DNA of 16,926 bases from a virus (UHGV-2150566), one strand, 5' to 3'. Shown: positions 2,511 through 6,872, numbered from the stretch's first letter. The notes: generated by a model from the letters alone, not told the origin. Made by a program: numbers and translations.

Positions 2511-3449
2511 GTGAAGCCTGAGGGCTGGGATAACCAGTGGAAGGGCGACGATGATTACCTGAAGTGGCTGGACCAGTGTCTTGCGCAGTTCTGGCGGGTG
2601 CTGAAACCTGCCGGAAGTCTTTACCTGTTCTGTGGCCATCGCCTGGCGTCTGACATTGAAATCATGATGCGTGAACGCTTCAATGTGCTGAACCATATTA
2701 TCTGGGCGAAGCCGTCCGGACGCTGGAACGGGTGCAACAAGGAAAGCCTGAGGGCATATTTCCCCGCCACAGAGCGCATTCTGTTCGCGGAACATTATCA
2801 GGGGCCGTATCGCCCGAAAGATGCCGGGTATGAGGCGAAGGGCAGGGCACTGAAACAGCATGTGATGGCCCCGCTGATTTCTTACTTTCGTGATGCGCGT
2901 GCTGCCCTGGGGATAACGGCAAAACAGATTGCTGATGCCACAGGAAAGAAAAACATGGTGTCGCACTGGTTCAGTGCCAGCCAGTGGCAGCTACCGGACG
3001 AAAGCGATTATCTGAAATTACAGGCGCTGTTTGCCCGGGTGGCAGAAGATAAGCATCAGCGCGGAGAACTGGAAAAGCCACATCACCAACTGGTCAGCAC
3101 ATACAGTGAACTGAACCGGCAGTATACGGAACTGCAGAGTGAATATAAGCATCTGCGGCGGTATTTTGGTGTGACGGTGCAGGTGCCGTACACCGATGTG
3201 TGGACGCATAAACCGGTGCAGTACTATCCCGGGAAACATCCGTGCGAAAAACCGGCAGAAATGCTGCAGCAGATAATCAGCGCGAGCAGTCGTCCGGGTG
3301 ACCTGGTTGCAGATTTCTTCATGGGGTCAGGTTCGACAGTCAAAGCAGCGATAGCGCTGGGACGTCGTGCAACTGGCGTTGAGCTGGAGACTGAGCGTTT
3401 TGAGCAGACGGTCAGGGAAGTTCAGAATTTAGTCAGTCAGAACGGATGA
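2511..3449 (+). CDS. DNA amino-methyltransferase (N6-adenine or N4-cytosine, beta-class N6_N4_Mtase family); 5' end missing in the N gap
   Basis: 312-aa readable portion ends with the SAM-binding motif I DLVADFFMGSGST. The expected N-terminal DPPY motif (motif IV) is not in the visible part, consistent with beta-class order and loss into the gap. The GTG at 2511 is just the first codon after the Ns, not a real start. Confidence 0.7.
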   Translation: MKPEGWDNQWKGDDDYLKWLDQCLAQFWRVLKPAGSLYLFCGHRLASDIEIMMRERFNVLNHIIWAKPSGRWNGCNKESLRAYFPATERILFAEHYQGPYRPKDAGYEAKGRALKQHVMAPLISYFRDARAALGITAKQIADATGKKNMVSHWFSASQWQLPDESDYLKLQALFARVAEDKHQRGELEKPHHQLVSTYSELNRQYTELQSEYKHLRRYFGVTVQVPYTDVWTHKPVQYYPGKHPCEKPAEMLQQIISASSRPGDLVADFFMGSGSTVKAAIALGRRATGVELETERFEQTVREVQNLVSQNG

Positions 3450-3451
3450 TA

Positions 3452-3480
3452 TTGCAGAATTAGTTACGTACCGTTATTAT
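3452..3480 (+). promoter_or_regulatory. candidate sigma70 promoter for the tRNA pair (-35 TTGCAG, 17-bp spacer, -10 TATTAT)
   Basis: Hexamers with 17-nt spacing; -10 ends 9 nt before the mature 5' end of tRNA-Ile2. Sequence inspection only. Confidence 0.4.
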
Positions 3481-3489
3481 CCTATGCCC

Positions 3490-3565
3490 GGCCCTTTAGC
3501 TCAGTGGTGAGAGCGAGCGACTCATAATCGCCAGGTCGCTGGTTCAAATCCAGCAAGGGCCACCA
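3490..3565 (+). tRNA. ileZ: tRNA-Ile2 (anticodon CAU, lysidine-type; ileX/ileZ-like)
   Basis: 76-nt cloverleaf: acceptor GGCCCTT / AAGGGCC, anticodon loop cuCAUaa, T-loop TTCAAAT, 3' CCA encoded. Near-identical to E. coli ileX as recalled; differs clearly from elongator and initiator tRNA-Met. Confidence 0.85.
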
Positions 3566-3574
3566 TATCACATA

Positions 3575-3651
3575 CCGCCATTAGCTCATCGGGATAGAGC
3601 GCCAGCCTTCGAAGCTGGCTGCGCGGGGTTCGAGTCCTCGATGGCGGTCCA
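3575..3651 (+). tRNA. tRNA-Arg (anticodon UCG; argN-like)
   Basis: 77-nt cloverleaf: acceptor CCGCCAT / ATGGCGG, D-stem GCTC/GAGC, anticodon stem CCAGC/GCTGG with loop cuUCGaa, T-stem CGGGG/CCTCG with loop TTCGAGT, CCA encoded. Unusual C1-G72 first pair. Confidence 0.7.
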
Positions 3652-3929
3652 TTATCTGCATTATGCGTTGTTGGTTCTGATGAGTGAATCATTGTCTTTT
3701 GAGCAACAGGCTATCATATAAGATAGCCTCAGACTTCCTTGTTTATTCTCGCCGGATGCTTCGTAGATATTTGCAGGCATCTGTATGCAGGGGTATTATT
3801 GCGGCATATATCATCCGGAAAAATAAAAACTACATGCTGATCCGGAGATGATAGTTACAAGTCCTCCCGGATCCCGCATATTTACTATATTTTATAGATA
3901 ATTGTTCTTGTTAATATGGAGATGGATAA

Positions 3930-4358
3930 ATGTATTGCCGTGCTGTACCAGTTCTTGTTTTGATATTAGCCAGTCTGACAACTGGCTGCACAAAAGATGT
4001 ATCGACAAATAATTATGATGCTTCTCTGTATCACTCAGATAAATTAATAAAGTCGCAAAATTTGAGCTCATCGGAACGTACCCCTGATGCCAGTGAAGAA
4101 ATCAGGCAGTATGCCATTCAGGTCAGGAAAGCCATAGAAGAACAGTTAAAGGATGCGAGTAAGTATTCAGGAAAAGAGTGTTCACTGAGAATGTATATGG
4201 CCCCGAATGGTCTTCTGCTACAGGTTAAAAGAGAAAGCGGTGATCCCGATTTATGTCGTGAAGCGATGAATGCAGTAAAGAATGCTGATATACCATCACC
4301 ACCGTCTTCAGGAGTATATAAAGCATTTAGAAATGGCGTGCTGGATTTTAAACTCTGA
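3930..4358 (+). CDS. signal-peptide (lipobox-like LTTGC) protein with TolA C-terminal domain (TolA-III)-like region; prophage moron
   Basis: RBS GGAGA before ATG 3930. N-terminus MYCRAVPVLVLILASLTTGC is a signal peptide with a lipobox-like Cys. The C-terminal ~85 aa (IRQYAIQVRKAIEE...GKECSLRMYMAPNGLLLQVKRESGDPDLCREAMNAVKNADIPSPPSSGVYKAFRNGVLDFKL) align colinearly with the C-terminal domain of chromosomal TolA as recalled. Visibly AT-richer than its neighbours. Confidence 0.7.
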   Translation: MYCRAVPVLVLILASLTTGCTKDVSTNNYDASLYHSDKLIKSQNLSSSERTPDASEEIRQYAIQVRKAIEEQLKDASKYSGKECSLRMYMAPNGLLLQVKRESGDPDLCREAMNAVKNADIPSPPSSGVYKAFRNGVLDFKL

Positions 4359-4674
4359 CAGGGGGAGAAGATTTTCTCCTGTCCTGATGATTTTGGGGCG
4401 CTGGAAAGATATTGTGCTGTGAAGTGTTAAATTCCTCACAACTCAGTAAGTTGACAGTTGCCTGTCAGACTGAGCATTTGTTAAAAAAATTTCGCATGGT
4501 GAATCCCCCTGTGCGGAGGGGCGACTGGTGAACGGTATGATCTCTTTGATGATCGTAAGCGAGAATATGCGGGTTTAGTGTCACCGGGCTGAACTCACCG
4601 GGAGGCACCCGGCACCATGCAATGGCACATAGCGCCACTCTCCAGCCCCTCTCCGGAGGGGCTTTCTTGTGGGC

Positions 4675-4701
4675 AAAAAAAAAGCCCGAGTGGGTTCGGG
4701 C
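4675..4701 (-). terminator. rho-independent terminator in minus-strand orientation
   Basis: On the + strand an A9 run precedes stem GCCCGA / TCGGGC with loop GTGGGT; read on the minus strand this is hairpin plus T9. Confidence 0.45.
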
Positions 4702-4756
4702 AACAGCATGAGATATACATTTTTATAATCGAATGGATTTTAACCAGAATTCATAA

Positions 4757-4781
4757 GGCTGCGCAACTGCGCGGCCTTTTT
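4757..4781 (+). terminator. rho-independent terminator (+ orientation) upstream of nanS-p
   Basis: Stem GGCTGCGC / GCGCGGCC (8 bp, one G-U), loop AACT, followed by TTTTT. Confidence 0.45.
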
Positions 4782-4883
4782 CGTATTGCGGGCTGTAGTC
4801 TTCCTCCTGCCATTGTCCTGTAACTTCCGGACTTCAGCCCGCCCCTCATCTGACTCACAACATTATCCCGACCGGGAGGATTC

Positions 4884-6872
4884 ATGACATTTAAACACTA
4901 CGATGTGGTCAGGGCGGCGTCGCCGTCAGACCTTGCGGAGCGACTGACACAAAAACTGAAGGAGGGGTGGCAGCCATTTGGCAGCCCTGTCGCCATCACG
5001 CCTTATACCCTGATGCAGGCCATTGCGGCGGAAGGTGATGTCACCACACCTGTGGTGGTGAAGCCGTCGGATGGAGAAGGCACAGTTATCAGCACCACCA
5101 GCGAACCGGAGTATTACTTTGTTGTTGTTCTGGCGGGGCAGTCAAACTCGATGTCTTTTGGGGAAGGGCTGCCGCTGCCGGAGACATATGACCGTCCGGA
5201 CCCGCGTATTAAACAGCTGGCGCGTCGCAGTACGGTGACGCCGGGTGGTGCCGCCTGTAAATATAACGACATCATTCCGGCAGACCACTGTCTGCATGAT
5301 GTGCAGGATATGAGTAACCTGAATCATCCTGAAGCGGACCTTAATAAAGGGCAGTACGGTTGTGTGGGGCATGCTCTGCATGTTGCCAAAAAGCTGCTGC
5401 CGTTTATGCCTGCGAATGCGGGTATCCTTCTTGTTCCATGTGGCCGTGGCGATTCGGGATTTACTGCGGGGGCCGAGGGGGCGTTTAACGCAGCGTCGGG
5501 AGCGACCGCAGGCTCGTCCCTGTGGGGGGCGGATAAACCGCTGTATTATGACCTGGTCAGCAGAACCCGTGCGGCCCTGAAGAAAAATCCGAAGAACGTG
5601 CTGTTATCAGTGATTTGGATGCAGGGAGAAAAAGATGTCAGTTCGGGGAGACATGCAGAACACAATGCGCTTTTCCTTGCCATGGTAAATCAGTTCCGTA
5701 CGGAACTGGCAGATGTGGCAGAGCAGTGTACTGGCGGGACAACGGCCAGCGTCCCGTGGATTTGCGGTGATACCACGTACTACTGGAAGGAAAGGTATGC
5801 AGCGCCGTATGAGGCGGTTTACGGTGGGTATAAAGGCAAAGCTGCGCAGAATATTCACTTTGTGCCGTTGATGACGGATGAGCATGGTGTGAATGTGCCG
5901 ACAAACGAGCCGTCAGAAGATCCGGACATTATCCCGGCGGGATACTATGGCGCTGCGTCACGCACTGCCAGTAACTGGACGTCAGCCGATCGTAAAACGC
6001 ACTTCAGTTCATGGGCGCGAAGAGGCATTGTTTCAGACCGCCTGGCAGGTGCCATTTTGCAGTACGCCGGGCGGACATTATCGTTCCTTACCGGGCAGAG
6101 CGCACCGCAGTCGGGTGGTACAACTCCCGGTGATGATGTCAGTCCGGGGGTACCGGGTGTTGAGAAACCGCAGGATGGCGGTGTTGCTGGTACTGGTCAT
6201 GATGAGGCCGTGAGCAGTACCAGGACGGTGGCTGAATATGATGCGAACAGTGGAAATGGTGTATGGACAGAGCAGCAGTGGGGGGCTGCCGGTGGCAAAG
6301 GCACTGTGACTGATGACGGTGGACGGAAAGCGCTGCGACTGGAAAAACAGCCCGGTAAACTGACGTCCTGGAAAATGTTCTGTACTGTTGCAGTGGAGGA
6401 GGCAAAAAATCTTCTCAGCAAGGGGGGTGAAATTGCCGTACGGTTCAAAATTCCGGATGGAAGCGAACTGGTGAACGGACAGTTTGTCTTTGGTCTCTAC
6501 TGGCCGGTGTCGCAGTGGGCGTCAGGCGCGGCAGCAAACAGTATGCTGGCATCATTCTTCCTTCAGACGGATGCATCAAATCTGAATCTTATGCACCACA
6601 AGGGCACGTCGAATGCACAACTGGGTACATTTGGTGCGTTTGACCATAACTGGCATACGGTTGTTTTCCGCTTTGCGGGAAATAACAGCGAAAGAGTCGT
6701 TCCGGTGATTGATGGTACAGAGCAGACGGCGTTTGACCTTGTGATGTGGACAAATGATGGCTTTACAGCAGATACGCTGACGCTGACAGATATCACGGGG
6801 GCAAAAGCGACGTATCCGGTACTGCTTGATACGGTCACAGTCAAAGTTAACGAAAGCCGGGCATCATCATAA
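4884..6872 (+). CDS. nanS-p: prophage-encoded sialate O-acetylesterase (NanS-p-like: N-terminal DUF1737-like region, SGNH/SASA esterase core, C-terminal putative carbohydrate-binding region)
   Basis: 662-aa ORF with RBS GGGAGG. N-terminus MTFKHYDVVRAASPSDLAE and esterase motif VVLAGQSNSMSFGEG match the NanS-p family found between the stx slot and lysis genes in EHEC prophages, as recalled. Confidence 0.8.
   Translation: MTFKHYDVVRAASPSDLAERLTQKLKEGWQPFGSPVAITPYTLMQAIAAEGDVTTPVVVKPSDGEGTVISTTSEPEYYFVVVLAGQSNSMSFGEGLPLPETYDRPDPRIKQLARRSTVTPGGAACKYNDIIPADHCLHDVQDMSNLNHPEADLNKGQYGCVGHALHVAKKLLPFMPANAGILLVPCGRGDSGFTAGAEGAFNAASGATAGSSLWGADKPLYYDLVSRTRAALKKNPKNVLLSVIWMQGEKDVSSGRHAEHNALFLAMVNQFRTELADVAEQCTGGTTASVPWICGDTTYYWKERYAAPYEAVYGGYKGKAAQNIHFVPLMTDEHGVNVPTNEPSEDPDIIPAGYYGAASRTASNWTSADRKTHFSSWARRGIVSDRLAGAILQYAGRTLSFLTGQSAPQSGGTTPGDDVSPGVPGVEKPQDGGVAGTGHDEAVSSTRTVAEYDANSGNGVWTEQQWGAAGGKGTVTDDGGRKALRLEKQPGKLTSWKMFCTVAVEEAKNLLSKGGEIAVRFKIPDGSELVNGQFVFGLYWPVSQWASGAAANSMLASFFLQTDASNLNLMHHKGTSNAQLGTFGAFDHNWHTVVFRFAGNNSERVVPVIDGTEQTAFDLVMWTNDGFTADTLTLTDITGAKATYPVLLDTVTVKVNESRASS

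Follow-up and report, generated by a model that had tools for sequence, protein, structure and literature searches.

A likely convergent pair of prophage small RNA genes between a TolA-like gene and nanS-p in the virus UHGV-2150566

What is encoded by the stretch of some 520 nucleotides (nt) that separates a TolA-like gene from nanS-p in the virus UHGV-2150566? We studied this interval (positions 4359-4883) in the window, i.e. the whole stretch of DNA analysed (16,926 nt), and conclude that it is very probably a convergent pair of small RNA (sRNA) genes of lambdoid and Shiga toxin (Stx)-type prophages, at the 'moron' site of the late operon: STnc100 on the plus strand and an anti-sRNA of the AsxR/AgvB/EcOnc03 family on the minus strand. 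An initial annotation had described a single structured non-coding region. The region is indeed structured and non-coding, but it is a composite of two convergent genes, an extra plus-strand terminator and the nanS-p leader rather than one 520-nt element, and its largest unit, a plus-strand STnc100 RNA of about 180-210 nt, had not been recognised. The sRNA pair has already been described in lambdoid and Stx prophages, and the present locus is real and largely ordinary; what is added here is a correct assignment of the individual hairpins, the recognition of a further (fourth) seed allele among the anti-sRNAs, and, for STnc100, a corrected 5' boundary together with a covarying pseudoknot.

Matches to two curated sRNA families on opposite strands

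Scanning the window with Rfam at curated thresholds gave four matches, namely two tRNAs, STnc100 on the plus strand and AsxR on the minus strand, the last two lying on opposite strands and 4 nt apart (Table 1). The earlier proposal of a candidate small RNA is therefore borne out by covariance models of two curated sRNA families. A permissive Rfam search of positions 3300-7900 returned further matches (Leu_leader, YrlA) only below threshold and at chance level. STnc100 is the family of EcOnc27 (Sakai Sp5), sRNA103 (EDL933) and PasD. The AsxR match (RF02703, 4731 to 4679) reaches 63.0 bits (E = 4e-8), a value equal to the gathering score, versus 88.1 bits for true AsxR copies, and the AgvB model (RF02702) gives 43.4 bits, below its cut-off of 56. 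Folding z-scores are -3.07 for positions 4494-4674 (plus strand) and -2.23 for the minus-strand RNA, and the surrounding 3400-5400 contains 4 terminator-like sites versus 1.4 +/- 1.2 in shuffled sequences.

The location agrees with a published arrangement. Tree et al. 2014 (PMC4104026) described sRNAs that bind Hfq and are encoded convergently, with a 'moron' gene downstream of Q/PR' on one side and a conserved open reading frame (ORF) on the other; in the present locus the moron is the gene resembling the C-terminus of TolA, and the conserved ORF is nanS-p. From Pfam and from the RefSeq annotation of a 99.8%-identical Escherichia coli prophage (isolate from the human urinary tract), the gene order is DUF968, RusA, antiterminator Q (1014-1835), DNA methylase, tRNA-Ile2/Met(CAT), tRNA-Arg, TolA-like gene and gap, followed by nanS-p (4884-6872), DUF826, holin and lysozyme. 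The type case, Sp5 (VT2-Sakai), has Rfam matches to STnc100 (207.7 bits) and AsxR (88.1 bits) that are 1 nt apart, and the end of its AsxR is 282 bp past stx2B, in agreement with the published value. Expression and Hfq binding have been shown for orthologues: both Sp5 RNAs, EcOnc27 included, were seen by Hfq cross-linking and analysis of cDNA (Hfq-CRAC) and Northern blot (PMC4104026), and PasD by RIL-seq (sequencing of ligated, interacting RNAs) and Northern blot.

The region recurs with 80-90% identity in 351 phage records, mostly of Stx phages, and is present in 2837 of 5426 complete E. coli genomes; homology with Stx phages begins only at about 4403-4436. None of the 25 best-matching E. coli records has a RefSeq feature under the matched region. 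Some phage records annotate spurious 'hypothetical proteins' here, the strand and frame of which vary from record to record.

Organisation of the two genes and of their surroundings

STnc100 homologues were gathered from IMG/VR by an exact 20-nt core pattern (at least 120 loci, 127 unique contexts), so that the near-invariance of the core is partly built in; the most divergent loci gathered still score as RF02076, with 52-87 bits. Covariation was assessed on 49 non-redundant STnc100 cores among the matches listed. The minimum free energy (MFE) fold of the window RNA has the hallmark of the family, a closing stem around several hairpins with GGUGAAUCCCCC...GGGGC and UCACCGGGAGGCACCCGG, and the near-invariant motifs of the core are GGUGAAUCCCCCU..GCGG.GGGGC and UCACCGGGAGGCACCCGG. 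Compensatory changes are found in 13 of the 26 consensus pairs, mainly in the closing stem P1 and the hairpin P4. In addition, the segment just after P2 co-varies with the loop of P4, forming a pseudoknot: the first strand exists in 36 distinct versions, duplexes with the strand's own partner average -9.7 kcal/mol versus -4.9 kcal/mol for swapped partners (Mann-Whitney p = 1e-23), and the P4 loop is the best partner inside the same RNA in 41 of the 49 homologues. This strongly covarying pseudoknot is an added detail: it is missing from the structure line printed by cmscan for RF02076, and it cannot show in the RNAalifold structures of Zhu et al. because RNAalifold does not predict pseudoknots.

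The 5' end of STnc100 is probably at about 4494, which would give an RNA of about 177 nt and make the first 29 or so positions of the Rfam model promoter DNA. Several comparisons point to this start. The bases TTG and TGTTAnAAAA of the putative promoter are invariant in the homologue alignment (A1), and a promoter scan of divergent homologues found strong promoters (TTGACA-18-TAAATT) at a fixed distance of 8 nt before GGUGAAUCC. In E2348/69, RNA-seq and Northern blot place the 5' end of PasD2 (NC_011601:741157) on the first G of GCAUGGUG, downstream of TTGACT-17-TTAAAA. The predicted length agrees with those of PasD (172-173 nt) and EcOnc06 (about 177 nt). The imperfect palindrome overlapping the -35 of this promoter may be an operator or the 5' hairpin of a longer form of the transcript; as a long palindrome it is confined to the window/Sp5 sub-lineage, other lineages having a shorter or different version.

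Downstream of the core, alignment shows that the single-stranded tail and the terminator are exchanged as modules between lineages. The tail (4621-4643) is the probable seed and Hfq-contact region, by analogy with PasD, whose seed UGUGAG sits at the equivalent position, and with EcOnc27, whose Hfq-CRAC peak covers its 3' part. Several IMG/VR metagenome contigs carry STnc100 in tandem, as 3-5 units that recur every 253 nt or so and have one terminator each (L026:342-1038, L037 and L070:4349-5513); the L070 array contains a match to isrI (RF01392), and two copies each are present in L096, L016 and L024. In phage mEp460 (L010, 730-1459) the order is reversed, the STnc100 copy being upstream of the TolA-like gene.

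For the anti-sRNA, the putative promoter is conserved at every locus that has this type of cassette, the -10 element CTGGTTAAAAT being kept in all AsxR/AgvB-type loci, and the predicted start (4731) coincides with that of the Rfam model; the 5' ends of the founding anti-sRNAs were mapped by RNA ligase-mediated rapid amplification of cDNA ends (PMC4104026). The 127 copies sampled fall into four sharply defined alleles, AgvB-type (59), window-type (27), EcOnc03-type (23) and AsxR-type (18). The window anti-sRNA, CGAUUAUAAAAAUGUAUAUCUCAUGCUGUUGCCCGAACCCACUCGGGC followed by U8-9, is thus a fourth recurrent 5'-seed allele.

Which host RNA might this allele address? The FnrS and GcvB sequences were verified by BLAST and Rfam; RNAduplex energies disregard accessibility, and only the site-restricted comparison of pairing is informative. 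It reproduced the published pairing of AsxR with the FnrS terminator loop (AsxR nt 1-11 with FnrS 101-112, -7.3 kcal/mol). The window allele carries U8->A, which interrupts this seed helix; the remaining -4.6 kcal/mol are on a par with the non-FnrS alleles, and the second helix (ACGAGU/AUUCGU) is missing. The best duplexes on FnrS 74-114 are -13.5 kcal/mol for AsxR, -8.8 for the window allele, -9.7 for AgvB and -10.0 for EcOnc03. The AgvB sequence AACAACACAACAA, which mimics a GcvB R1 target, is absent from the window allele, and its duplex with GcvB reaches -12.0 kcal/mol versus -26.0 for AgvB. Given the weak pairing with FnrS and the lack of the GcvB mimic, we regard the window RNA as a member of the anti-sRNA group that is probably not a functional AsxR; in this energy model its target is probably neither FnrS nor GcvB. 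The neighbouring STnc100 was also considered as a target and rejected, the duplex with the 5' region (-16.4 kcal/mol) being no better than shuffles (fraction 0.12).

Positions 4659-4668 (GGGCTTTCTT, the 3' end of the STnc100 terminator and its U-tract) are 90% complementary to 4678-4687 (AAAAAAGCCC, the A-run plus the beginning of the anti-sRNA terminator), so that read-through of either gene would form an extra hairpin. Four loci (L003, L005, L006 and L012, i.e. Sp15/VT1-Sakai, phi315, ASU11 and Lyz12581) have another minus-strand cassette aligned to 4675-4750 (...GCCGCCCGCGTCTCCCAGCGCGGGC followed by T6). It has no Rfam match, and the sRNA candidate that Pearl Mizrahi et al. show for the E2348C_1409-1408 intergenic region (their Fig. 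S5) is similar to it.

Table 1. Positions of the sRNA genes, their parts and neighbouring elements in the window
Feature	Position	Strand	Description
STnc100 (RF02076), full-length match	4465-4674	+	179.1 bits versus gathering score 47; E = 2e-41; model 1-206 of 206
Putative sigma-70 promoter of STnc100	4458-4487	+	-35 TTGCCT 4458-4463; 18-nt spacer; extended -10 TGtTAAAAA 4479-4487
Imperfect 33-nt palindrome	4442-4474		pairs 4442-4447/4469-4474 and 4451-4457/4462-4468
Structured core of STnc100	4494-4620	+	MFE fold and covariation
Core helices	P1 4494-4501 with 4613-4620; P2 4505-4522; P4 4571-4596; P5 4598-4612	+	fold
Pseudoknot	4525-4531 with 4581-4587	+	CUGGUGA, just after P2, with UCACCGG in the P4 loop; covariation
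Variable single-stranded 3' tail	4621-4643	+	alignment
Rho-independent terminator of STnc100	4644-4670	+	8-bp GC-rich stem AGCCCCTC/GAGGGGCT (4644-4663) and UUCUUGU
Anti-sRNA, AsxR/AgvB/EcOnc03 family (RF02703)	4731->4675	-	53-57 nt
Anti-sRNA parts	4731->~4703; 4701->4684; 4683->4675	-	variable 5' region; terminator stem; U9 tail
Putative anti-sRNA promoter	4737-4766	-	-35 TTGCGC 4766->4761; -10 TGgTTAAAAT 4746->4737; start 4731
Hairpin after the TolA-like stop codon	4357-4368 with 4372-4383	+	12 bp; fold
Second intrinsic terminator	4755-4783	+	10-bp stem (7 GC) 4755-4778; T5 4779-4783
nanS-p leader hairpin	4788-4842	+	13-bp stem 4788-4800/4830-4842, GCGGGCUGUAGUC with GACUUCAGCCCGC; 29-nt loop
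Shine-Dalgarno and start of nanS-p	GGGAGGA 4874-4880; ATG 4884	+	conserved in alignments
tRNAs	3490-3565 and 3575-3651		Rfam

The five hairpins listed in the initial annotation are all in the sequence, some with corrected coordinates. The one after the stop codon, placed at 4364-4379, extends over 4357-4383 with 12 bp, and the palindrome of about 33 bp covers 4442-4474 rather than 4447-4480. The terminator of STnc100 is the 8-bp stem at 4644-4663 that precedes TTCTTGT; the A9 run (4675-4683) and the adjoining hairpin (4684-4701), read there as a minus-strand T9 terminator, end the anti-sRNA; and the plus-strand hairpin with T5 is present at 4755-4783. These last three are among the 4 terminator-like sites counted above. 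A discrete short transcript had been suggested between the opposed terminators. We do predict one, the minus-strand anti-sRNA, but the T5 hairpin does not bound it and overlaps the -35 of its promoter instead. The suggestion of a bidirectional insulator is partly apt, in that there are three separate unidirectional terminators, two on the plus strand and one on the minus strand.

The terminator at 4755-4783 is about 90% identical to that of PasD2 (22-nt BLAST match); its right arm and T-run are kept even in loci with a different minus-strand cassette, and a pattern count showed that terminators of this form (GGCYGC...GCRGCC-Tn) directly end STnc100 copies elsewhere. From these sequence comparisons, it is probably the ancestral STnc100/PasD terminator; an insertion upstream of it would have brought in today's tail, terminator and anti-sRNA cassette. 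A MAFFT alignment of the window with loci that have no anti-sRNA cassette did not bring the terminators into register. Further downstream, four types of nanS-p leader preserve the stem; between them, compensatory substitutions and G.U pairs speak for the plus strand. The folding z-score is -3.60 for 4750-4895 (plus strand), and this hairpin may affect the processing or translation of nanS-p. The hairpin after the TolA-like stop codon is possibly a weak terminator or a stabiliser of the moron gene and lies outside the conserved sRNA module: the stability of the 95-nt stretch around it is not unusual (z = -1.06), and it is absent downstream of the TolA gene of mEp460.

Other elements were noted around the gap. 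The moron gene (3930-4358) encodes a 142-amino acid (aa) TolA C-terminal-domain protein (PF06519, E = 5.7e-23), named 'cell envelope integrity protein TolA' by the Prokaryotic Genome Annotation Pipeline (PGAP). The tRNA at 3490-3565 is Met (anticodon CAT) according to ARAGORN, and tRNA-Ile, ileZ-like, according to PGAP on the identical gene of E. coli EC2; the ileZ-like type is common in Stx phages. A plus-strand terminator at 1918-1933 (CCCGCCGCCTGGCGGG followed by T6, within 1869-1933) is a candidate tR' of a short StxS-like PR' leader, and a further one (2246-2263) follows a small ORF ending at 2259. A minus-strand terminator (6879-6898) directly follows the nanS-p stop codon, and a strong plus-strand terminator (7531-7567, 12-bp stem and T4) stands just before the holin gene; these two sites are the positions of PasA/PasC (EcOnc51/52) in enteropathogenic and enterohaemorrhagic E. 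coli (EPEC and EHEC). A PasA/PasC-like sequence was looked for between nanS-p and holin, and no sequence similarity to E2348/69 PasA was found.

Competing explanations and proposed working

Several observations count against the sRNA pair as described above. The AsxR score is barely at the curated threshold. The promoter of STnc100 is a weak match to the consensus here (score 6.4 versus 11-14 in divergent homologues), and the U-tract of its terminator is weak. On Northern blots, Sp5 EcOnc27 runs at about 235/247 nt, which exceeds the predicted length, so that a longer or read-through form is possible. Over the whole RNA, RNAduplex energies failed to distinguish even the published AsxR-FnrS pair from shuffled sequences (fraction 0.20). 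The expression of both RNAs is known from orthologues, and we infer both the back-up role of the 4755-4783 terminator and the Q read-through proposed below.

Conservation of the STnc100 core far exceeds the need of a seed-pairing sRNA, which raises the question of whether it is chiefly a structured functional RNA domain, acting by protein or ligand binding or in cis on the late transcript, with the Hfq binding of the tail being secondary. We consider this unlikely, but of the alternatives it has the most to recommend it: a near-invariant core, a multi-helix junction and the strongly covarying pseudoknot, persistence downstream of at least three unrelated Pfam families of Q (PF03589, PF06530, PF06323) and of DUF1133 proteins, tandem arrays of 3-5 copies, and no known direct target for EcOnc27/sRNA103, whose effect on espA appears indirect. 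On the other hand, no ligand or protein partner is known either, RIL-seq gives many partners for PasD, whose seed is in its 3' tail, both PasD and the 247-nt form of EcOnc27 are Hfq-dependent, and many copies have a strong promoter of their own at a fixed distance and a terminator, as ordinary sRNA genes do; the invariance of the core is moreover partly a product of the collection pattern. A tentative idea, to which we give a similarly low weight, is that the 127-nt core forms a compact, pseudoknotted tertiary domain and has an independent function, to which the swappable tail adds base-pairing specificity. This function may be protein or small-molecule binding, or protecting or marking the RNA.

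The remaining alternatives are weaker. With three intrinsic terminators inside 140 nt upstream of the lysis cassette, and terminators recurring in unrelated phages in the interval that separates STnc100 from holin genes, the region might simply insulate the moron from nanS-p and the lysis genes, the short RNAs being functionless by-products. Insulation needs neither a 127-nt core with covarying helices nor discrete minus-strand seed alleles conserved base for base over dozens of copies, and trans effects of AsxR and AgvB have been demonstrated (PMC4104026), which makes this improbable. Still less probable is that STnc100 is a PR'-tR' late leader RNA, an analogue of lambda 6S/StxS starting constitutively at the late promoter that depends on Q. 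STnc100 is strongly associated with Q: it usually lies between Q and the lysis genes, a Q gene is upstream on the same strand in 80 of 97 STnc100 loci, and 11 loci have STnc100 only 181-300 nt past the Q stop; among 45 non-redundant nearest upstream ORFs, 19 match the three Q families cited above and 6 more match DUF1133. In the window, however, STnc100 is 2662 nt from the Q stop (range across loci 181-4758 nt) and a separate terminator stands 83 nt past that stop (1918-1933), a terminator also being found between Q and STnc100 in the most closely spaced loci; furthermore, each of at least three unrelated Q families would require its own binding element. In Stx phages, PR' is upstream of the tRNAs and stx, which also speaks against a leader. 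We therefore rejected the PR' leader for the window on account of the distance from Q and the intervening terminators. Finally, 'hypothetical proteins' annotated here in several phage records could suggest a small protein or a decayed coding remnant, for instance the 68-aa ORF at 4617-4823. We give this hardly any credence. That ORF would cross two terminators and the antisense gene, the ORFs annotated differ in strand and frame between records, and a tblastn comparison with 13 homologous loci showed stops or frame breaks in the five ORFs of the gap (the 68-aa one and four minus-strand ones of 41-57 aa). The interruption of these ORFs in homologous phages indicates that the region is non-coding, in keeping with the earlier remark that it has no convincing ORF.

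For the convergent sRNA pair, which we prefer, we propose the following working, modelled on the orthologues. In a lysogen, each gene would be transcribed from its own sigma-70 promoter to its own intrinsic terminator, and both RNAs would bind Hfq. STnc100 would have a compact pseudoknotted 5' domain, and target mRNAs would most likely be bound by base pairing with its variable 3' tail. The conserved 3' part of the anti-sRNA would provide stability and Hfq binding, and its variable 5' region of about 25 nt would pair with, and so inactivate, a host sRNA. The terminator at 4755-4783 would act as a back-up stop, preventing transcription in the lysogen from entering nanS-p or the lysis genes, and during lytic growth Q-modified RNA polymerase from PR' would pass all three terminators.

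Above all, the analysis gives a correct label to DNA that annotation overlooks. Through sRNAs of this pair, prophages rewire the Hfq networks of their EHEC and EPEC hosts: AsxR raises the haem oxygenase ChuS by removing FnrS, and AgvB blocks GcvB. As the present copy adjoins a TolA-like cargo gene, the sRNA module travels with cargo other than stx, and the fourth seed allele implies that the anti-sRNA family has at least one further target among host RNAs. The STnc100 family model would gain from the covarying pseudoknot and the corrected 5' end, which would also guide mutational work.

Comparison with known systems

The window anti-sRNA shares with the group of AsxR (EcOnc02, RF02703, Stx2 phage Sp5) a minus-strand site between moron and nanS-p, convergent with STnc100. 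Members of the group are 51-60 nt long and have a conserved 3' region of about 42 nt with GCCCGAACCCAYUCGGGC and a U-run, as has the window RNA. Its first 7 nt (CGAUUAU) are those of AsxR and its 3' part (UCUCAUGCUGUUGCCCGAACCCACUCGGGC and the U-tail) is identical to that of EcOnc03. It differs from the AsxR consensus at 6 of 53 positions, four in the variable 5' region and two in the conserved part, where it matches EcOnc03. Unlike AsxR, it is not complementary through its 5' region to the FnrS terminator loop according to the energy model, and it has neither the score nor the GcvB mimic of AgvB (EcOnc01, RF02702).

On the plus strand, the closest known system is EcOnc27, which is STnc100 because the EcOnc27 Northern probe is the reverse complement of the Sp5 STnc100 tail. 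EcOnc27 is also sRNA103 of EDL933 (Paganini et al.), the overexpression of which raises espA and fimZ transcripts (PMC12711010, PMC5030294). The window STnc100 shares with EcOnc27/sRNA103 the core, the position and the convergent partner, with a DNA identity to Stx-phage copies of about 81-85%. Its internal variable hairpin and its 3' tail and terminator are however 'Sp15/phi315' modules and not those of Sp5, so that any seed borne by the tail differs from that of EcOnc27. The upstream cargo also differs, stx in Sp5 and the TolA-like gene here.

PasD, an Hfq-dependent RNA of 172 nt, is related to STnc100 (Pearl Mizrahi et al. 2021; Zhu, Shabalina and Storz 2026, preprint). PasD1/PasD2 of EPEC E2348/69 have the same fold family, the same position upstream of a sialate esterase gene and a 5' end at the P1 stem; PasD2 also has the same pseudoknot pairing (AAUGAUC with GAUCAUU) and a terminator that resembles the hairpin at 4755-4783. 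By contrast, PasD can be aligned to the window only in short stretches (83% over 29 nt, plus a 22-nt local match), its P5 hairpin is degenerate, its seed UGUGAG is absent from the window tail (4621-4643), and the PasD2 locus has no anti-sRNA cassette. StxS and lambda 6S RNA are likewise short terminated RNAs of lambdoid phages, late leaders made independently of Q and read through with Q. Unlike these, the window STnc100 is not adjacent to Q and has its own putative promoter downstream of the cargo genes.

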